Assembly (NCBI GenBank): GCA_015061185.1
Contig: SUWZ01000011.1
Span: 3,328-67,327 of the forward strand
Origin: Bacteroidales bacterium
GTDB lineage: Bacteria; Bacteroidota; Bacteroidia; Bacteroidales; Paludibacteraceae
Direction: 5' to 3'
Length of the DNA: 64,000 bases
Of this stretch, positions 36,202-60,268 are shown piece after piece. A program made the position numbers and the translations under genes. The notes beneath the pieces were generated by a model. The model was not told where the DNA came from. It saw only the letters and a list, made by a program, of their open reading frames with translations, and did no database searches. The stretch's first letter is position 1; the number at the start of each line of letters is the position of its first letter.

Positions 36202-37578
36202 TTATTTCCAAAAATCTTGCATCTTTGAAATAGCATAAATTGGGCAGATAGCAACATTCCGGATTATTCCACTCTCCTTATCGCAATACTCTAACTTTCC
36301 AAAATTCTCTAAAGAACATCTAACTGCATCTGTTATTTTTTTCTCTTGCATAAACATCCACAAACTTTTCATGCCTCCTTGAGTGCCTGCCTTTACCTCT
36401 ATCGGCAATATGCGTTGCCTATGTCCAACTACATAATCCACTTCTGCCTGAGAGTTTTTTGCCTGTCTAACCCAATAAAACAAATCATGCCTGATATTTG
36501 GAGTCTGATAGCGCAAGTATTCAAGACCGACAATCATTTCTGCCACAGCTCCTTTATTTACAAGCTCCGCCGCACCCATTGTCAGTATCTGAGATGTTAT
36601 TTGCGTTATGTCCCCCATCGCCATATTGAGCAATCGCAACATAAGACCGGAGTCCAGTAGCAAATATTTTCTGTACGAATCATCAGCCTCACCGCCAAAA
36701 GGCAGTCCGTTTGCACTTGTATGTGTCACGGGGGTAAGTATTCCCGCCAAAGTCAACATTCCAAGAGCCTTTTTCACCTCTTCTGTCTTATATCCGCTTC
36801 CAACCTGAGAGCAGACAAACTTTTTTGTAGCCTGCACCGCCGCACTTCGCAACGTTTGACGAAGGAGCGTAGGATCAACTCTTTTCCTATATTTAGGAAA
36901 ATCATCTTCATAACTGACTATTATATCGTCTTGCACCTCTTGACATTGCAAAAAATCATGCGTCTCAACCCATTTTGCAACAGCCTCCGGCATTCCTCCC
37001 ACAAGCATATACACACGTAACAGACTCACCAATTTATCATGCAATGGTTCAGAGAGCGGACAAGAGAGCGTAGCTTGGTTTCGCACATCAATAAGCTGAT
37101 GCTCTCCGTTCGCTTTTAAAAACTCATCGAATGTCATCGGATACATAAACATCGAGTGGATACGTCCAACACCAAAAGTTGGCAGTTCATCTAATGCAAA
37201 TTCCAGCAACGACCCTGCTGCTATCACGTGCAGTTCAGGCATATCCTCCTTAAAGAAACGTAAGGACATAATCGCTTCCGGACACTCCTGTATTTCGTCC
37301 AAAAACAACAGAGTTGCTCCAGCCTTTATCGGTTTGCCACACATTGCTGCCATTTGTGGCAGTATTCGCGCAACGTCCAGATTATCTTTAAACAGCAACT
37401 TATATTCCGGTTGCTTTTCAAAGTTTATCTCCACGTAGTGTTCAAACGCATTGCCTAAGTGACGAACTGCTGTCGATTTCCCGACTTGACGCGCCCCTCT
37501 CAACAACACAGGCTTGTGATTATCGCGCGAAGCCCATTCAGATAAATAAGTATCTATTATTCTTTCGTAATACTTCAT
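36202..37578 (-). CDS. AAA+ ATPase with a C-terminal DUF4143 (PD-(D/E)xK-like) domain
   Basis: Walker A GARQVGKST, Walker B LLFLDEIQ, and C-terminal AEVDYVV...LPIEVKAG. Confidence 0.85.
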   Translation of the reverse strand: MKYYERIIDTYLSEWASRDNHKPVLLRGARQVGKSTAVRHLGNAFEHYVEINFEKQPEYKLLFKDNLDVARILPQMAAMCGKPIKAGATLLFLDEIQECPEAIMSLRFFKEDMPELHVIAAGSLLEFALDELPTFGVGRIHSMFMYPMTFDEFLKANGEHQLIDVRNQATLSCPLSEPLHDKLVSLLRVYMLVGGMPEAVAKWVETHDFLQCQEVQDDIIVSYEDDFPKYRKRVDPTLLRQTLRSAAVQATKKFVCSQVGSGYKTEEVKKALGMLTLAGILTPVTHTSANGLPFGGEADDSYRKYLLLDSGLMLRLLNMAMGDITQITSQILTMGAAELVNKGAVAEMIVGLEYLRYQTPNIRHDLFYWVRQAKNSQAEVDYVVGHRQRILPIEVKAGTQGGMKSLWMFMQEKKITDAVRCSLENFGKLEYCDKESGIIRNVAICPIYAISKMQDFWK

Positions 37579-37784: not shown

Positions 37785-40700
37785 CTACTGCACCGTTGCA
37801 ATCTTGTTAATCAAATCTTGATAGGTAGCCACCTTGTGATACTTGACATTGGCAGTGGAAATCGTGTTAAACAATTTTTCCGCACAGTCAATCTTTGCCT
37901 TTTCAATGGCTGACAAATCCATAGAAGACATAGAGCCTTTGGTTTCTGCTATAAAAAAGATATGTTTCACATCGTTCTTCTTCATGGCGATAGCCCAATC
38001 GGGTGCGTAGTTGCCTACGGGTGTCGGGATTTGGAAAGTGCGTGGCAACTTGGCATATACCACCACTTCGCTTGCCTCATCAAGGTCGTGGGCAAATTGG
38101 CGTTCTCCCTTGCTGTCGCTGAAGACATAGTCTGTAATGTGTTTCTTCGCTTCGTATGCTCTGTCAAAATCTGTCTTACTCTTTATCGTGAAGATGTCGC
38201 TATCATACTTTCCTTCTGTGATATTATAGTGAATATGTTCCACTATCATCGTTGATTTCTGCTCCTTGATGATGCTTATCACCTTGCGGATAAATTCTTC
38301 GGGATTATTTTTGAAGAGATAGAATTTGCTCTCCTTAATCCCTTGCAGAATCTTCACAACTGTACGACGAGTGAGATTTGTCCCTTTGGCAATGTCGCCC
38401 ACAAGGTCATATTTGACAGTTGAGGTACATACATCAGTCAGGGGTTTTGATTCTGAACGTGTGTTACCAAACTCTGTAACCTGAGTTTCATTTTGCGTTC
38501 CCTCCACCATCACATAACGGAGTTGTGTAACTTCTAATTCTGAATTGATATGCAGTATGGCATTCTTTATCAACTCTTCACTATCATAACTTACCTGATA
38601 GACATACTGATGATTTATCTCGTTCCAAAGTGCCTGAAACTCGGCTTTATTGAAGTTATCGTTCAATCTATTGACTGAGGTTGCAACCTTTTCTTCAACA
38701 AACATGTCGTTCAGTGCATTAGGGTCGAAGATTGAATTTATCAGTTTGAAGACTCCTTCGGAAATATGTTGCAACTTTTGCGGCAATGGAGCAACTGTAC
38801 CATTAGCCACTGCCTCACGATATTCGGGGGTGATATTCTTCTGCTCGTCAATATAACCGTTGTCCTCCAAATAGATAATAATGCGACTTGCTTCGGTTTC
38901 GGTAATAGCATGTGTCTCTTCTCCCATCTTGATTTGCTTGTCAATGAAATAGGTAACGGTTGCTTTAACCGCACGCTCACGCAACACATCACGTGTCTCC
39001 CGCTGCAAGGCTGAGGTAAAGTCGGCATAGCTTTCATTGGCTATCACTGTCAGTTTATTCACTTCATGCACATCCTCGCCCAATAGTTCGGCATCCATAC
39101 GAGTTCCGTGTTTATCCACACAAATACGCAATCCGCGTCCCACCTCCTGACGCTTGGAAGTAGTTGAGTTTGAGTGCCTCAGTGTACAAATTTGAAAAAC
39201 ATTCGGGTTATCCCACCCTTCACGCAAAGCAGAGTGAGAGAATATGAAACGTGTAGGCTCATCGAAACTTAACAAACGCTCCTTGTTCTTCAATATAAGT
39301 TCGTATGCTGAAATATCATCAGAAAGACCGCTCTTCTTCTCTATCTTGCCATCTACCACTCTGTTTGTCTTCTTGTCAATAGAGAAATATCCATTATGAA
39401 CGTCTTTGGGATAAAAACGTCGCAAATAGTCATTGTAGGGGTCTTCAAATATCGTAATTTCGTTATTTACCAATCTTGAATACTCCTCTTCAAATATCTT
39501 CTGGAAGATACCCTTCACTTCGTTACCTTGCTCGTCATAACTCTTGTACTTCGCCACCTCGTCTATAAAGAAAAGCGACAAACATTTGATACCGCGTTTG
39601 AAAAGTTGGCGTTCTTTCTCAAAGTGCGACATGATAGTTTCGCGAATTTGCACTCGCTGCATATTCAGTTCGTTGGTATCGCCTATGACCTCTCTTCTGC
39701 GTATGGTTGTTCCATTTAAGAATGTTACATAACCATTCCTATCAATTTCTGAAACAGTGAACCCTTCGTAGGCTGCCAAGCCGGACTCCTCCTGCAAATT
39801 GTCGCCAACACTGAAGTTTTTTGTCTTGCGAACAATGTTGCCTGATGCTGTTTTGACTTCAATTTCTAAGCGCGCCATAGGCGGCTGATTGTGCGACAAC
39901 ACTATATCGTCCAGATATAAATAACTGCTCGTTCCTCTCAAATTTTTCACCTCGAAGCCTTTCACTTGAATACGCTTCACCAACTTCTGACGGTAGGCAT
40001 CGAGTGCATCCAACGCATAGATCGTGTTGTGCCTGGTCTTGTGTGTAGCAGAATAGTTTAGCACAAACAATGGATTGAATCGCTTGATACCTTTCTGGGT
40101 AGCATCGCCCTCCATCTTCTGCGGCTCGTCCATAATGACAATAGGACGATTGGCTGCAATTACATCTATAGGACGGCGACTGCCAAACTCATCACGCTTG
40201 GAGTAGATTATCTTGCTCTCCTTGCTGCTTCCGCCCTCTTTCATAGAGGAGGCAAAGGCTTGCGTGTTGATAATCAACACATTCAGTCCGGAGTCCGACG
40301 AGTAACTGTCAAGTTGCTGCAAGTTTCCGCTGTTGTAAATGAATCGTCGCGCTTTCTTTCCGTAATGCTCCATAAAGTGTTCTTCGAGCATATCAAAACT
40401 TTTCGCAACCCCTTCTCGAATTGCAATACTTGGCACTACGATAATAAATTTGCTCCAACCATACTGCTTGTTCAGTTCAAACATGGTTTTGATATAAACG
40501 TAGGTTTTACCTGTGCCGGTTTCCATTTCAATGTCCAGATTTACATCACCCAAACCTTTGGAGAGCGAAGAAGAAGGCTCTATGTCGTTTCGGTTTTGTA
40601 TCGAGTTGATGTTTTTAAGCAACGTTTTCTCGTCCAGTTCCAGATTGTGGTTGCAGTAACCTGTGTCGCTGTCAAACATATTCTGATGCAAAACCTTGCC

Positions 40701-40817
40701 TTTGTCCATACGGTACTCCGCCGCCACCTTGTGCGACGGCTGTCCGTTGAAGACCGCCACCGTATTTTCTACAGCATCGGTCTGATATTGCTGAATCTTA
40801 AATTTGAATTTCATCAT
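37785..40817 (-). CDS. res: Type III restriction endonuclease subunit Res
   Basis: Helicase motifs METGTGKT and MDEPQK. C-terminal nuclease motif PDW...AETKG. The listed start at 40823 is TTG, and the first ATG is at 40817. Confidence 0.9.
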   Translation of the reverse strand: MMKFKFKIQQYQTDAVENTVAVFNGQPSHKVAAEYRMDKGKVLHQNMFDSDTGYCNHNLELDEKTLLKNINSIQNRNDIEPSSSLSKGLGDVNLDIEMETGTGKTYVYIKTMFELNKQYGWSKFIIVVPSIAIREGVAKSFDMLEEHFMEHYGKKARRFIYNSGNLQQLDSYSSDSGLNVLIINTQAFASSMKEGGSSKESKIIYSKRDEFGSRRPIDVIAANRPIVIMDEPQKMEGDATQKGIKRFNPLFVLNYSATHKTRHNTIYALDALDAYRQKLVKRIQVKGFEVKNLRGTSSYLYLDDIVLSHNQPPMARLEIEVKTASGNIVRKTKNFSVGDNLQEESGLAAYEGFTVSEIDRNGYVTFLNGTTIRRREVIGDTNELNMQRVQIRETIMSHFEKERQLFKRGIKCLSLFFIDEVAKYKSYDEQGNEVKGIFQKIFEEEYSRLVNNEITIFEDPYNDYLRRFYPKDVHNGYFSIDKKTNRVVDGKIEKKSGLSDDISAYELILKNKERLLSFDEPTRFIFSHSALREGWDNPNVFQICTLRHSNSTTSKRQEVGRGLRICVDKHGTRMDAELLGEDVHEVNKLTVIANESYADFTSALQRETRDVLRERAVKATVTYFIDKQIKMGEETHAITETEASRIIIYLEDNGYIDEQKNITPEYREAVANGTVAPLPQKLQHISEGVFKLINSIFDPNALNDMFVEEKVATSVNRLNDNFNKAEFQALWNEINHQYVYQVSYDSEELIKNAILHINSELEVTQLRYVMVEGTQNETQVTEFGNTRSESKPLTDVCTSTVKYDLVGDIAKGTNLTRRTVVKILQGIKESKFYLFKNNPEEFIRKVISIIKEQKSTMIVEHIHYNITEGKYDSDIFTIKSKTDFDRAYEAKKHITDYVFSDSKGERQFAHDLDEASEVVVYAKLPRTFQIPTPVGNYAPDWAIAMKKNDVKHIFFIAETKGSMSSMDLSAIEKAKIDCAEKLFNTISTANVKYHKVATYQDLINKIATVQ

Positions 40818-40824
40818 ATTCAAT

Positions 40825-41540
40825 TATGAATGATGAATTAGGAGTTAGGAATTAAGTGATTCCCGAGTTGTTTTTGTTATGCTACTTAAAAGCTTTTTTA
40901 ATTCTTCACAATCACTATTTATGGAATATTACTCTCTGCCATAATGATTATTTTTGCAAAGATAGGATAATTCCTAATCCCTCACTCCTAATTCCTAATT
41001 ATTTATGAATGATGAATTAGGAGTTAGGAATTAAGTGATTCCCGAGTTGTTTTTGTTATGCTACTTAAAAGCTTTTTTAATTCTTCACAATCACTATTTA
41101 TGGAATATTACTCTCTGCCATAATGATTATTTTTGCAAAGATAGGATAATTCCTAATCCCTCACTCCTAATTCCTAATTATTTATGAATGATGAATTAGG
41201 AGTTAGGAATTAAGTGATTCCTGAGTTGTTTTTGTTATGCTACTTAATAGCTTTTTTAATTCTTCACAATCACTATTTATGGAATATTACTCTCTGCCAT
41301 AATGATTATTTTTGCGAAGATAGGATAATTCCTAATCCCTCACTCCTAATTCCTAATTATTTATGAATGATGAATTAGGAGTTAGGAATTAAGTGATTCC
41401 CGAGTTGTTTTTGTTATGCTACTTAATAGTTTTTTTAATTCTTCACAATCACTATTTATGGAATATTACTCTCTGCCATAATGATTATTTTTGCGAAGAT
41501 AGGATAATTCCTAATCCCTCACTCCTAATTCCTAATTATT
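40825..41540. repeat. Four tandem 179-bp units, each an internally deleted copy of the four-helix-bundle gene cassette
   Basis: Units begin at 40825, 41004, 41183 and 41362. A fifth unit at 41541 runs into the intact gene. Each unit joins the gene's 3' end, its 5' end and promoter, and the heptamer blocks. Confidence 0.95.
40957..40964 (-). promoter_or_regulatory. -7 box TATCTTTG inside repeat unit 1, pointing toward res
   Basis: Same box as the four-helix-bundle gene promoter. Also intact in unit 2 (41136-41143). Units 3 and 4 read TATCTTCG. Confidence 0.4.
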
Positions 41541-41560
41541 TATGAATGATGAATTAGGAG

Positions 41561-41923
41561 TTAGGAATTAAGTGATTCCTGAGTTGTTTTTGTTATGCTA
41601 CTTAATAGCTTTTTTAATTCTTCACAATCACTATTTATGGAATTATACTCCTTTTCGTTAATGTATTCGGTTGCAAGTAATAAATCCAACCAATACTTAC
41701 TCTCTGCAGCTTCTTTATAAGCAATATACATTTTGGCAAGAAAATCCTTTTTGCTGATTCCGCACAATGCTTCATTTACGTTTGCTCCAATACTTGTTCC
41801 CGAACGAAGAAGTTGTTTAGATAATACAAACTCCCTTTTCTCTTCACTAAGATATTGGTATAACCGAACAATGCGTATAGCAAAATCTCTACTCTTATCC
41901 TTAATAATGTTATTCTCTGCCAT
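41561..41923 (-). CDS. Four-helix-bundle protein (23S rRNA intervening-sequence protein / Avd-like family)
   Basis: 120 aa. FAIRIVRLYQYL...QLLRSGTSIGANVNEA...SKKDF..K..IA.KEA.ES.YWL is the hallmark pattern of this family. Confidence 0.85.
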   Translation of the reverse strand: MAENNIIKDKSRDFAIRIVRLYQYLSEEKREFVLSKQLLRSGTSIGANVNEALCGISKKDFLAKMYIAYKEAAESKYWLDLLLATEYINEKEYNSINSDCEELKKLLSSITKTTQESLNS

Positions 41924-41939
41924 AATGTATCTTTATTTG

Positions 41940-41947
41940 CAAAGATA
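41940..41947 (-). promoter_or_regulatory. -7 box TATCTTTG for the four-helix-bundle gene
   Basis: The plus strand reads CAAAGATA 17 nt upstream of the ATG at 41923. Confidence 0.45.
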
Positions 41948-41981
41948 GCATAATTCCTAATTCCTAACTCCTAATTCCTAA

Positions 41982-43904
41982 TTATATTACTCTACACGTA
42001 GTTTCCGGTGAATAATGCTTAAAAATCTGCTCGAAGTTGTCTATCACATTATCATTGACTGCCGAGGCGTCACGCATGACAAAATAGACCGGCTTCCGCT
42101 TGGCAATCTCCGTAATGGTTTTCTCATCAACATCTTTATCGAAAACAGCCATAAGATAACCATCATCCACATTAAATACCGTAATATCATTCCTAATTCC
42201 TAACTCCTCATTTCTAATTGAAACAGAGAGTTCTATTCCGAGGTCGAGCATCACTTGAAAGAGCAAATCCTCATTGGTGCGGTCTGACTTTACATTTTCA
42301 TTGAAGAGCGAACTCATGCTAAACTCTTGTGGCGTGTAATAAACATCTTCCATATTAGAGGAGTCGAGCTTCAATACTCGGAAACCGATATCCAATTTGG
42401 AATTAGGAGTTGGGAGTGAGGAATTGTTTTCATTCTTCTTTCCTAATTCCTCATTAATTTTCTTTCCTGCACGACGGATACGCTCCTTGCCTATCTCACA
42501 GATATTCTTGTAACCGGCTTTGTAGGCTTCGCTCTTCTCTTCAGTCTTTTCTGGCAACTGCACCATAATGAATTTACGATTACCGCCATCTTCGGCATTT
42601 AGTTTCATTACGGCGTGGGCGGTAGTAGCGGAACCCGAGAAGAAGTCGAGAATGATGTCGTTACAATTAGTATATAAAGCAAGACATCTTTGAATTAAAT
42701 CAACGGGTTTAGGGTATTCAAAATACGATTTACCACCAAATAGTAACTTAAGTGCCTGCGATGCTTGTTGTGAATGACCGACTTCTTCGTGTTTCCAAAT
42801 AGACATAGGTGTAACACCTTGTTTTACCTCAGACAAGAATCGTTTAAGTCTTGGAACATTATCACCATTTGCACCAAACCAAATGCGATTATCGGCAATC
42901 ATTTCTTGGAATCGTTCTTTTGTATATAACCAACATCTACCACTTGGAGGTAGTATAACTCGACCGCTTGGAAGAGTTAGTGGATAAACTTTTGAATTAA
43001 CAACAGGACCAACCGTAGTATTATCACTCTGCCAAGGTCCTCGTTGGTCATTGTCAGGATTTGAGTATCGAGATGTATTTTCTTCTGTTCTCGGCAAACC
43101 ATTGCAAACGGTTATATCTATATTTTTTCCATATGCCAAAATATAGTCGTGACTATACGAAAAATGTTTCTTAAGACTAATTGGAGCAAAAGACCTCTCC
43201 CATACTACTTGTGCCAAAAAATTATGCTCACCAAATATCTCGTCTGTAATGTTTTTTAGATTTTTACCCTCATTATCATCAATTGAAATAAAAATAACCC
43301 CATCCTCTGTAAGCAAATCTCTCGCCACCTTCAAACGAGGATAAATCATATTGAGCCAATTGGTATGGAAACGACCGTTGCTTTCGGTATTTCTTGTATA
43401 TACTTTTTCATCCATAATAATATTACCTTCTTCATCTCTAAAAGAAGAACGATCAGCATCATTAGCCGCATTTTCAGCAAAATCATCATTATACACGAAG
43501 TCGTTTCCCGTATTATAAGGTGGGTCGATGTAAATCATCTTCACCTTGCTCAAATAGGTTTCACGCAATACTTTGAGTACATCAAGGTTGTCTCCCTCTA
43601 TGTAAAGATTTTGTGTATTGTCGAAATCCACACTCTCCTCACGGCAAGGGCGGAGTGTCATAGTTGTAGGAGTGTTAGCCAAGCGGACAGATGCGCGCTT
43701 GTCTGGCCAAGTGAACTGATAACGTTCCTCTCCCTCTGCAATGATTTCGTTGGATAACTCTGCTTGCAGTTTCTCAAAGTCGATAGCCAGTTCCGGCTTA
43801 CCATCCTTGCCCAAACGTTCCGTCACGCAATTAGGAAACAGCCGGGCAATCTTCTGTGTGTTAGAGCCTATCACATCGTGGCTCTGCATTTTCAGCCTCT
43901 CCAT
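41982..43904 (-). CDS. mod: Type III R-M DNA methyltransferase subunit Mod (beta-class N6-adenine)
   Basis: IYIDPPYNTGNDF (motif IV) precedes ILDFFSGSATTAHA (motif I). The conserved C-terminus is FRVLKLDSSN...DLLFQVMLDLG. Confidence 0.9.
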   Translation of the reverse strand: MERLKMQSHDVIGSNTQKIARLFPNCVTERLGKDGKPELAIDFEKLQAELSNEIIAEGEERYQFTWPDKRASVRLANTPTTMTLRPCREESVDFDNTQNLYIEGDNLDVLKVLRETYLSKVKMIYIDPPYNTGNDFVYNDDFAENAANDADRSSFRDEEGNIIMDEKVYTRNTESNGRFHTNWLNMIYPRLKVARDLLTEDGVIFISIDDNEGKNLKNITDEIFGEHNFLAQVVWERSFAPISLKKHFSYSHDYILAYGKNIDITVCNGLPRTEENTSRYSNPDNDQRGPWQSDNTTVGPVVNSKVYPLTLPSGRVILPPSGRCWLYTKERFQEMIADNRIWFGANGDNVPRLKRFLSEVKQGVTPMSIWKHEEVGHSQQASQALKLLFGGKSYFEYPKPVDLIQRCLALYTNCNDIILDFFSGSATTAHAVMKLNAEDGGNRKFIMVQLPEKTEEKSEAYKAGYKNICEIGKERIRRAGKKINEELGKKNENNSSLPTPNSKLDIGFRVLKLDSSNMEDVYYTPQEFSMSSLFNENVKSDRTNEDLLFQVMLDLGIELSVSIRNEELGIRNDITVFNVDDGYLMAVFDKDVDEKTITEIAKRKPVYFVMRDASAVNDNVIDNFEQIFKHYSPETTCRVI

Positions 43905-44601: not shown

Positions 44602-44777
44602 GGTGTGTATTTCAGATATTTCAAAACACTAAAAAGATATGTTTTCCAATGTTTCTTATTGTCAATTTGGTGCGTTTTCCGATATTTACAAACTCAGAAA
44701 GGTGCGTTTTCCGATAATTTAAAGTATAATAAAGGTGCGTTTTCCAATATTTACAAACCAAAAAAGGTGCGTTTTCC
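44602..44777. repeat. Downstream array: about 6 GGTGCGTTTTCC-type repeats with a 32-33-bp period
   Basis: Cores at 44669, 44701, 44734 and 44766. Degenerate copies at 44602 and about 44636. Confidence 0.85.
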
Positions 44778-44835: not shown

Positions 44836-46194
44836 TTAGTCCAAAAATTGCGTTATAACATTAGACTCGTTCTGAAAGAACATTACATAATAGATTGGAA
44901 TATAAGTAATTCCTTTCTTTGTATAAACCTTCTGCTCATTAGATAGCACATAGGCTCTTTTTACGTTGTACTCGTCGTTTGTCAGAAACTTATTCAATGC
45001 ACTGTGGACGGTATAATCCTTTCCGGACTTCACCTCTATCGGGATATTTGACAAATTATCCACATCATCAATCAGATAGTCCACCTCTCCGTTTTTCTTG
45101 TTGTCGTAATAGTACAAATTATATCCGTGCGCCTTCAACTCTTGCGCCACCACTGTTTCATAAACCGAGCCGAGGTTTATGCTTCTTTCATCAGACATTA
45201 TTGCAGATATGTTGTTGCGGTAGAACAAGCCCGACAAAATACCCACATCGTTTAGATAGAGCTTCAGCAAATTCTTTCCGCAGTTTTCGGACAACGGATA
45301 GGTTGGAGTGCTGATAGCCTTCACGTCCAAAGTTACGCCAGCTGAAATTAGATAATCAAACTCGTCCAGATAGTCGTCACTTCTCTTCCAGCCTTTGTCT
45401 TCAATATCCTTCACCACAACTCTCTTCTTCTTATTTTCAAGGTTGGACGGAATCATATCAAAAACACGGCGAATCTTCAATCGCTTATTATGCTGCTCTT
45501 CATACTTTGACGCATCCACAGCGTATAAATTGTGGGTCTCTTTCTGCACCGACCTGAAACGTTCTACATTTCGGCTCTCGACGAAAATCTCCACCGCTCT
45601 CGGCAATCCGCCTACCAGAAGATACTTCTTAAAGAGGTCCATTATTTTGCTGTGCATCGCATCTGGCAGGGCCTGGCTGTTTTCAAAACACTCCCTCATC
45701 TCCCCAACCGCAACTTCACCCACTCCGTTAGCATACAAAAACTCCTCAAAGTCCAAAGGGTACATGTGCACCACCTCCAGACTGCCTATCGGCAAAGACT
45801 GTATTTGCTTTAGTGTCACGCCAAGCAAAGAGCCGCTGGCTATATAGGTAAACCTGCCCTCCTTCATCAAAAACTTCACAAGGGTGAGAAGATGGTCGTA
45901 AGCCTGTATCTCGTCAATAAAGACAAGCGTATTGGACTTATCCTTCAACTTGTTGCCTGCCACAACGCTGAGAGCCATGTAAAAATCTTTTGTGGTCTTG
46001 GCCTCCGCAAAGATTCTGTCGCCCAACTTATCCTCCTCCATATTGATTTCCACATAATTGGAGAACATACGTCGCCCAACCCATCGAATTATATAGGACT
46101 TTCCTATTTGTCGGGCACCATCAACCAACATCATTCTGTCTGAATTTGATGTCAGATACTCCTCTATCCTTTTGGTTATCTTTCTATACAACAT
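44836..46194 (-). CDS. AAA+ ATPase with a C-terminal DUF4143 (PD-(D/E)xK-like) domain, paralogue of 36202-37578
   Basis: Walker A GARQIGKSY, Walker B LVFIDEIQ, and C-terminal GEVDYLI...IPIEVKSG. Confidence 0.85.
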   Translation of the reverse strand: MLYRKITKRIEEYLTSNSDRMMLVDGARQIGKSYIIRWVGRRMFSNYVEINMEEDKLGDRIFAEAKTTKDFYMALSVVAGNKLKDKSNTLVFIDEIQAYDHLLTLVKFLMKEGRFTYIASGSLLGVTLKQIQSLPIGSLEVVHMYPLDFEEFLYANGVGEVAVGEMRECFENSQALPDAMHSKIMDLFKKYLLVGGLPRAVEIFVESRNVERFRSVQKETHNLYAVDASKYEEQHNKRLKIRRVFDMIPSNLENKKKRVVVKDIEDKGWKRSDDYLDEFDYLISAGVTLDVKAISTPTYPLSENCGKNLLKLYLNDVGILSGLFYRNNISAIMSDERSINLGSVYETVVAQELKAHGYNLYYYDNKKNGEVDYLIDDVDNLSNIPIEVKSGKDYTVHSALNKFLTNDEYNVKRAYVLSNEQKVYTKKGITYIPIYYVMFFQNESNVITQFLD

Positions 46195-59643: not shown

Positions 59644-60268
59644 AAAACAAAACAGTAAATAAATTAATAATACATAAGGAAATTCAATTAAAACAAAAGA
59701 TAAGTACAAACAATTCTTAACCTATTTTACAAACTTTGTAGCTAAAGAAAATCCTTATAAAACACTCTGCAAAGATAGTAAAAACAAAATAAATAAAAGA
59801 CATTTAAGAAATTGTTTTAATTTATTTCGACTCTATTTGAGAAAATTGTTAAAGGAGGGGTTCTATAAATCCATTTCACGGAATTTTTGAATTTATTTCC
59901 AATAAATAGTGTAAATAAGGGATTCTAACCCTTAAAATTAGTTAAACAAGTAATAAATTTTAGAAAATATGTTGCATAACATAAAAATACAACATATATT
60001 TGCACTGTGTTTTTCATGGTATTAGATTTAAGGTTAGAGAGATGGGATGTCGTGATGACATCCTTCTTTAGTTTTATGAGGTTCACACAAACAAAATGGC
60101 AACATTACGAATCGTGGTAAGTTCAATAAATTCACCGTTTTAATTAAGAAAAAAAAATCGTGAAGTAAAAAAACTCTAAATTCGCGAAATGAACTTATAA
60201 AAACCCACCAAGAGTAAAAAATTACCAAAAATAGAAACAAAACATTTTACCATACAAGTCAAAAACAC

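Follow-up and report, generated by a model that had tools for sequence, protein, structure and literature searches.

Genes of the four-helix-bundle family variously called S23p, 23S-intervening-sequence protein (23S_rRNA_IVP) or Avd-like have been described in several settings. In the 23S rRNA intervening sequences (IVSs) of Leptospira and Coxiella burnetii a gene of this family lies between terminal inverted repeats that pair into a long stem; in Coxiella the element has an S23p open reading frame (ORF), and RNase III cuts its 28-bp terminal stem, within which two to three tandem heptamers, their number depending on the strain, adjoin the ORF, and it is deemed a selfish element of unknown mobility (PMC4990558). 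Work cited in the same paper reports the Xanthomonas S23p protein to be a homopentameric toroid. Avd of the diversity-generating retroelements, also a pentamer, belongs to the same fold family (PF05635 / cd16375), and further genes of the family occur inside cas operons (PMC3936711). Intergenic direct-repeat arrays of the heptamer TAACTGA are found in Beggiatoaceae, Cyanobacteria and some Bacteroidetes (PMC4679880). While the gene family, the rRNA intervening sequences, the Coxiella heptamers and the occurrence in cas operons are already known, a literature search of incomplete coverage returned no description of a common arm architecture, of placement at stop codons or of tandem stubs. Here, we describe these features for a cassette carrying a four-helix-bundle gene within a type III restriction-modification locus of a Bacteroidales bacterium, located in a 64-kb stretch of contig SUWZ01000011.1 (hereafter the window; comparison loci and contigs are labelled L plus a number).

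On the minus strand of the window the order is mod, the four-helix-bundle gene, four units of 179 bp, and res (Table 1). An N6_N4_Mtase Mod followed by a Res with ResIII and RE_endonuc domains is the composition of a type III operon; homologues of mod are 72-98% identical, and res matches NF012027 at E 8e-119, yet under the curated cut-off of that model. The protein encoded between them matches PF05635 (E 2.7e-29, 102 bits, cut-off 33.8) and TIGR02436 (E 7e-32, 109.9 bits, cut-off 24), and its nearest solved structure is PDB 2RLD (E 2.9e-38). The region is a four-helix-bundle (S23p / 23S-IVS-protein / Avd-like) cassette, co-directional with its neighbours, starting directly past the mod stop codon and lying before res. 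Its 5' arm holds five heptamer cores across 33 nt (Tandem Repeats Finder (TRF) period 7, 4.7 copies), and the TAA stop of mod (41982-41984) shares 2 nt with the first heptamer, as read from the sequence. At the other end the final codons and stop of the four-helix-bundle gene (AAT TCC TAA) fall within the 3' arm, and the two arms are predicted to pair with each other when the cassette folds (z = -6.9). An arm-type 18-mer with up to 3 mismatches occurs 21 times in the 64-kb window against 0.28 expected by chance, always within 40836-42425, and arm-type heptamer words are likewise restricted to 40833-42451. Two patches of the AATTAGG type lie within mod itself, in variable linkers that bracket the conserved C-terminal module; at 42394-42451 the linker is about 10 residues longer than in most Mod homologues.

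The closest known system is the 23S IVS, which the cassette resembles in its protein family, in terminal inverted repeats that, in predicted folds, form an enclosing stem, and, as far as Coxiella is concerned, in tandem heptamers placed in the stem beside the ORF. Unlike the IVS it lies between two protein-coding genes rather than in helix 25 or 45 of 23S rRNA, and an Rfam search of the window found no rRNA, placing the element outside any 23S rRNA gene; within the cassette region the same search gave nothing above threshold, only sub-threshold look-alikes of microRNA hairpins. The arms also differ, with some five AAT-KNNN heptamers in place of a unique 28-bp repeat, the ORF of the cassette is well conserved whereas that of Coxiella is decaying, and the cassette is trailed by tandem stub copies. 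With Avd it shares the fold family, but its neighbours are mod, res, AAA_14/DUF4143, TspO and POR; no reverse transcriptase domain was found among genes within about 6 kb, nor a template/variable repeat pair near the gene.

An earlier note on this DNA had read the gene as a discrete cassette with inverted heptamer termini and proposed a survey of its homologues for similar ends. The 80 loci surveyed, which encode the proteins most similar to this one (54-85% identity), are from Bacteroidota, several Firmicutes families, Proteobacteria, Ignavibacteria, Planctomycetes, Spirochaetes, Cyanobacteria, Chloroflexi, Verrucomicrobia and others, and the survey was strongly positive: a period-7 array is present upstream at 65, downstream at 62 and on both sides at 54 of the 80, bearing out the cassette. 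Arrays are about 16 times denser near the gene (2.37 per kb) than elsewhere in the same loci (0.145 per kb). Arm length has a median of 32 nt on either side with a histogram peak at 31-33 nt, and the modal number of in-phase AAT cores is five in both 5' arms (38/70) and 3' arms (42/70). The repeat takes the form A-A-T-(T/G)-N-N-N, with 30 different heptamers in the 54 two-armed loci, and in 85% of loci the 5' and 3' heptamers are reverse complements of each other, allowing one mismatch; when arm partners are shuffled, this complementarity drops to 17.6%, with a maximum of 36.5% over 2000 permutations. Identical heptamers are shared between loci in 0.5% of cases at 40-50% protein identity and in 33% at 80-90%, where 92% are within one mismatch. 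Since more similar proteins more often have a common heptamer, the arms descend with the gene. Both arms are also present at 9 of 16 loci on viral contigs, some with quite different heptamers such as TAACCTA. What defines the cassette is a pair of inverted arms, their AAT(T/G) core constant and the other three bases variable, which are inherited together with the gene.

Inverted arm pairs without a gene, using the heptamer of the local cassette, were also observed (L031 1267-1390 and 2681-2791; L004 470-610; L060 4632-4712 and 6306-6404; L006 4841-4956; L075 203-389; L040 2689-2873). Their interiors of 17-121 nt contain no gene remnants but unrelated sequence, often a small GC-rich hairpin. 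In addition, series of 3'-type arms in the same orientation, spaced every 70-130 nt, and arrays of up to 222 nt are found across L017 (557-1008), L049 (1626-1849), L074 (2848-3790) and L009 (2575-2796), so that arm-containing segments amplify in several ways.

Within operons the cassettes are co-directional and usually begin at the stop codon of the gene upstream. In 52 loci the genes on either side share the orientation of the four-helix-bundle gene, against 3 loci in which both are anti-oriented (p = 1.5e-12). The first heptamer and the upstream stop codon overlap, with a median offset of -2 nt; the value is exactly -2 in 11 of 56 loci (p = 1e-7), as it is in the window. From the 3' arm to the next start codon the median distance is 15 nt. 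In roughly half of the cases the four-helix-bundle ORF terminates within the 3' arm, and at the Firmicutes loci a ribosome-binding site lies within a few nt after each arm. The neighbours of the 80 loci fall into 105-120 Pfam families, among them those of purH/purD and gyrB/gyrA junctions, efflux pumps and restriction systems, and this diversity rules out a cassette tied to defence.

Nor are the arrays a property of the mod-res junction. Close Mod homologues (72-89% identical) have a zeta-toxin pair, RhuM or a 219-aa protein between mod and res, and because this other cargo has no period-7 arrays, the arrays belong to the gene and not to the site. In L084 the end of mod, ACGTGTAGAGTAATATAA, is identical to that of the window, and divergence begins right after the TAA. 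The alternative cargo, comprising a 69-aa protein with the zeta toxin, RhuM, or the 219-aa protein, lies at L084 6891-7789, L085 6903-7765, L086 6885-7901 and L088 6405-7191; with such unrelated genes in different strains, the mod-res junction looks like a hotspot for inserted genes. No truly naive empty site was found at mod-res among the loci examined.

The 179-bp units between the intact gene and res (TRF, 40824-41650: 4.6 copies, 98% matches, no indels, the last 0.6 copy being the 3' end of the intact gene) each consist of a 5' arm (AATTAGGAATTAGGAGTGAGGGATTAGGAATT), a -7-like box, a seven-codon stub ORF (ATGGCAGAGAGTAATATTCCATAA, MAESNIP-stop), the last ~70 nt of the gene, a 3' arm and a closing spacer of 11-13 nt, ATCATTCATAA(AT). 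Alignment to the intact cassette agrees with the earlier note in making them internally deleted copies that keep both arms: about 270 nt of interior are missing, the 3' 110 nt are 98% and the 5' 68 nt about 88% identical. Units 1 and 2 are identical, and units 3 and 4 differ from them by two to three single-nucleotide polymorphisms (SNPs). The boxes, as the note had pointed out, are not the same throughout (TATCTTTG in units 1-2, TATCTTCG in units 3-4). The predicted fold of one unit is closed by the arm stem (z = -4.6), and where units abut, the 3' arm, the spacer and the next 5' arm form a 59-nt quasi-palindrome with 78% complementarity in an inverted-repeat search, found again at 41154-41212, 41333-41391 and 41512-41570.

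The ends of the units bear on their origin. ATCATTCATAA equals the first 11 nt of the conserved sequence between 3' arm and res in relatives that have no units, and every unit opens with the ATAA of the mod stop region; since the units carry this host flank and the ATAA, the segment duplicated in tandem was larger than the arm-bounded element. No copies of the unit were found elsewhere in the 64-kb window, its deletion junction was found in the metagenome collection on only one further contig, at the same mod-res locus, and neither a target-site duplication nor a transposase was seen. Judged by their sequence, the four units are local tandem duplications, not transposed copies. Like miniature inverted-repeat transposable elements (MITEs) and REPIN/RAYT-type systems, the stub keeps both termini of a gene-bearing parent, and gene-less arm pairs with the local cassette heptamer exist elsewhere; unlike them, the stubs are undispersed and in tandem with host flank, with no transposase and no target-site duplication. 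The likeness to a MITE and its autonomous parent suggested in the earlier note therefore holds for the anatomy, an internal deletion with both termini kept, but not for the origin. We suggest that the segment from the mod stop to 11 nt beyond the 3' arm was duplicated in tandem, that one duplicate then lost ~270 nt of its interior to give the stub, and that the stub would have been amplified, and would still be gained and lost, via unequal recombination or slippage between repeated arms and gene ends.

Comparison of related assemblies shows that the number of units varies, a possibility raised in the note: none in L099, L100 and L001, where res starts 30 nt past the gene, one each in L081 and L082, two distinguishable units in L091, on a contig covering mod to res, at least three in L083 and four in the window. 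The variants in L083 follow the same order as in the window, and its contig ends where an identical unit would come next. The single unit of L081 combines SNPs in a way absent from every unit of the window, a chimeric state as unequal crossover would give. Contigs of 0.5-2 kb are the sole source of many of the four-helix-bundle protein's nearest homologues, consistent with repeat-bounded cassettes breaking short-read assemblies.

Gain, loss and amplification are also seen at the junction of gyrB and gyrA in related Acutalibacteraceae (L045 and L092-L098). The four-helix-bundle gene is lacking in L092-L094, present once in L045 and L098, interrupted by a stop codon in L097, and present as three tandem genes with a 375-bp period in L095; L096 has one gene preceded by a stub made of the gene 3' end and a short 3' arm, although some one-copy states in short-read assemblies are possibly collapses, notably this one against the three copies of L095. 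Between these lineages the variable bases differ jointly in both arms, with AATKCGT/AATTACG in L045 and L098 and AATKCGG/AATTCCG in L097. The gene-free junctions hold a solo direct array of about six TTAGAYR heptamers (L092 4981-5030, also L094 4803-4852), running from the gyrB stop codon to just before the gyrA ribosome-binding site, which could be a footprint, a target or an independent element. It is of the same kind as the TAACTGA arrays, which are also of period 7 and lie at gene junctions near start codons; those arrays are direct, solo and without a linked gene family, in contrast to the cassette arms, which are inverted pairs around one gene.

The best explanation, which we consider probable though by no means secure, is that of a subfamily cassette whose arms are inherited with the gene, whose units arose by tandem duplication, and whose arm stem acts in the transcript. 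In a mod-res co-transcript the outermost arms would pair and seal off the whole 1.16-kb insert, while each unit junction would fold as its own hairpin of ~21 bp; in the predicted fold of the 1.19-kb insert the outermost arms do close it, and the junction hairpins dominate. Such a stem may let the insert occupy an operon unharmfully, via processing and/or by keeping the upstream stop near the downstream start, and the homopentameric protein perhaps also binds to the five-core arm. Action of the arms in the operon transcript seems most likely because the 23S IVS stem of the same family is cut by RNase III, and we propose by analogy that RNase III could cut the arm stem in the mRNA; action in the transcript would also fit the co-orientation and the stop-to-start packing.

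Several observations weigh against this account. Mismatches between arms are 50 of the G:U type and 51 of the A:C type, with no wobble bias, for which reason covariation was dropped as evidence of RNA structure; without a G:U excess, the complementarity is not attributable to sense-strand RNA pairing over a DNA-level process. The commonest difference between arms is an uncompensated T/G at core position 4, and the 3' arm of the window's lineage holds three cores only. The -7-like box lies internal to the 5' arm, so transcripts from the cassette's own promoter would be without that arm and only read-through from mod would form the outer stem. Moreover, the 80 loci cover this subfamily rather than all of PF05635, and some copy-number differences, as between L096 and L095, may be due to assembly collapse.

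A serious alternative, which we rate as possible rather than probable, is that the arms serve at the DNA level, as the terminal repeats of a mobile element; either the four-helix-bundle protein or a host recombinase would recognise them for excision and insertion at stop codons, with RNA pairing incidental and the stubs by-products. This would agree with the lack of a G:U excess, the precise positioning at stop codons, the descent of the arms with the gene, orthologous junctions both gene-bearing and gene-free, gene-less pairs with the local heptamer near the cassettes of L004, L031, L040, L060 and L075, and protein identities of 60-70% between phyla together with copies on viral contigs. It sits less easily with a 120-aa four-helix bundle without known catalytic motif, the lack of any observed target-site duplication, and a terminal sequence that varies across the family, unlike transposon ends. 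DNA transposition alone would not be expected to yield the 52:3 orientation bias, and the host flank in the window's units means that these did not move as arm-bounded elements. Slightly less likely but also serious, and compatible with our preferred explanation of a transcript-level stem, is a role of the arms as protein-binding arrays, in which a ring of the homopentamer would bind five AAT cores at 7-nt spacing in RNA or single-stranded DNA, regulating its own or neighbouring translation or protecting the transcript, much as the TRAP ring binds spaced triplets. Five cores are the clear mode, arm lengths peak sharply, the core is constant while the spacer varies, the family is homopentameric (2RLD has five chains), ribosome-binding sites closely follow each Firmicutes arm, and the uncompensated changes at core position 4 argue for a constraint beyond pairing. 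However, the match of five to five is so far numerology, the three-core 3' arm of the window lineage does not conform, and binding alone leaves the complementarity of the variable bases in the two arms unexplained.

The earlier note suggested that the array of units could tune res relative to mod. In a fuller form of this idea, a selected, phase-variation-like array of promoters or RNA hairpins, variable in copy number, would set the expression of res against that of mod; we find this unlikely. Every unit does carry a TAnnTT(T/C)G box toward res, unit number ranges from 0 to 4 between related assemblies, and at its end the last unit is complementary to the sequence around the res start codon, in a small hairpin that recurs in relatives. 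Yet the orthologous cassettes in L001 and L100 lack the TAnnTTTG box that the window and L099 have, the window contains such a motif roughly every kb in any case, and whole or partial tandem copies are also found at the housekeeping gyrB-gyrA junction, so that amplification looks general to the cassette and not an adaptation of this restriction system. Phasevarions arise from simple-sequence-repeat phase variation of type III mod genes, with a tract of 1-7-nt repeats inside the reading frame; the window shares with them a variable-copy repeat at a type III restriction-modification locus, but here the unit is intergenic and 179 bp long, and the heptamer patches in mod are short, in frame and at C-terminal linkers. 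The complementarity at res is real, ATGATGAA in the start region (40810-40817) pairing over 8 bp with TTCATCAT at the end of the last unit, which lies at 40830-40837, one base from where the earlier note had placed it. This hairpin of the 3' arm flank (TTCATC..) with the res start region (..GATGAA), 5-8 bp long (window 40810-40837), recurs in shorter form in L099 (1290-1330), L001 (4370-4400) and L100, and could occlude the res start codon. Finally, an assembly artefact, or ordinary slippage unconnected with the gene, is a very improbable source of the 179-bp array. Units 1 and 2 are identical and tandem repeats are often mis-assembled, but the ordered SNP pattern recurs in the independent contig L083, L091 runs from mod to res through two distinguishable units, and arms stand beside most of the sampled relatives; with the same units in these independent metagenome contigs, the array is genuine.

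Table 1. Positions of the cassette, its repeats and the adjoining restriction-modification genes in the window.
Feature	Position	Strand	Details
mod	41982..43904	-	type III Mod methyltransferase; N6_N4_Mtase, PF01555 E 2.4e-37
Heptamer patch in mod	42394..42451	-	in-frame translation NEELGKKNENNSSLPTPN; 5'-type array, then 3'-type array
Second heptamer patch in mod	42188..42212	-	in-frame translation NEELGIRN
5' arm, intact cassette	41951..41983	-	AATTAGGAATTAGGAGTTAGGAATTAGGAATT; AATTAGG AATTAGG AGTTAGG AATTAGG AATT
-7-like box	41940..41947	-	TATCTTTG; Bacteroidetes-type, in the gap from 5' arm to start codon; motif match alone
Four-helix-bundle gene, intact	41561..41923	-	120 aa; S23p / 23S_rRNA_IVP / Avd-like family
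3' arm, intact cassette	41551..41571	-	TTAATTCCTAACTCCTAATTC; three cores
Tandem units	40824-41002, 41003-41181, 41182-41360, 41361-41539	-	179 bp each
Junction quasi-palindrome	40975..41033	.	3' arm of one unit, spacer and 5' arm of the next unit
res	37785..40817	-	type III helicase-nuclease; ResIII + RE_endonuc

Beyond the cassette, two paralogous AAA_14/DUF4143 ATPase genes in the same orientation (36202-37578 and 44836-46194) flank the restriction-modification locus, a paired arrangement also found in L081 and L085. Some five copies of the motif GGAAAACGCACC at ~32-nt spacing lie just downstream of one of these ATPase genes, on the upstream side of the restriction locus (44669-44777; TRF period 32, 3.4 copies). 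The Bacteroidetes small RNA family FopS is matched at 60007-60073 with 70.6 bits, over its Rfam gathering score, a match that assigns the window to Bacteroidetes.

We tentatively suggest that heptamer-armed S23p/IVP genes may form a phylum-spanning, as yet undescribed class of operon-junction elements, inserted co-directionally at stop codons, with five-core arms matched to a binding pentamer and co-evolving complementarily, of which the 23S IVS would be the special case noticed first. The repeats can alter the spacing between restriction-system genes, and because of them short-read assemblies break or collapse at operon junctions, that of the essential gyrB and gyrA included. Thousands of genes carry only the vague annotation 'four helix bundle protein' or '23S rRNA-intervening sequence protein', and the constant architecture of arms, stop-codon placement, co-orientation, and gain, loss and amplification gives a testable handle on this gene family.

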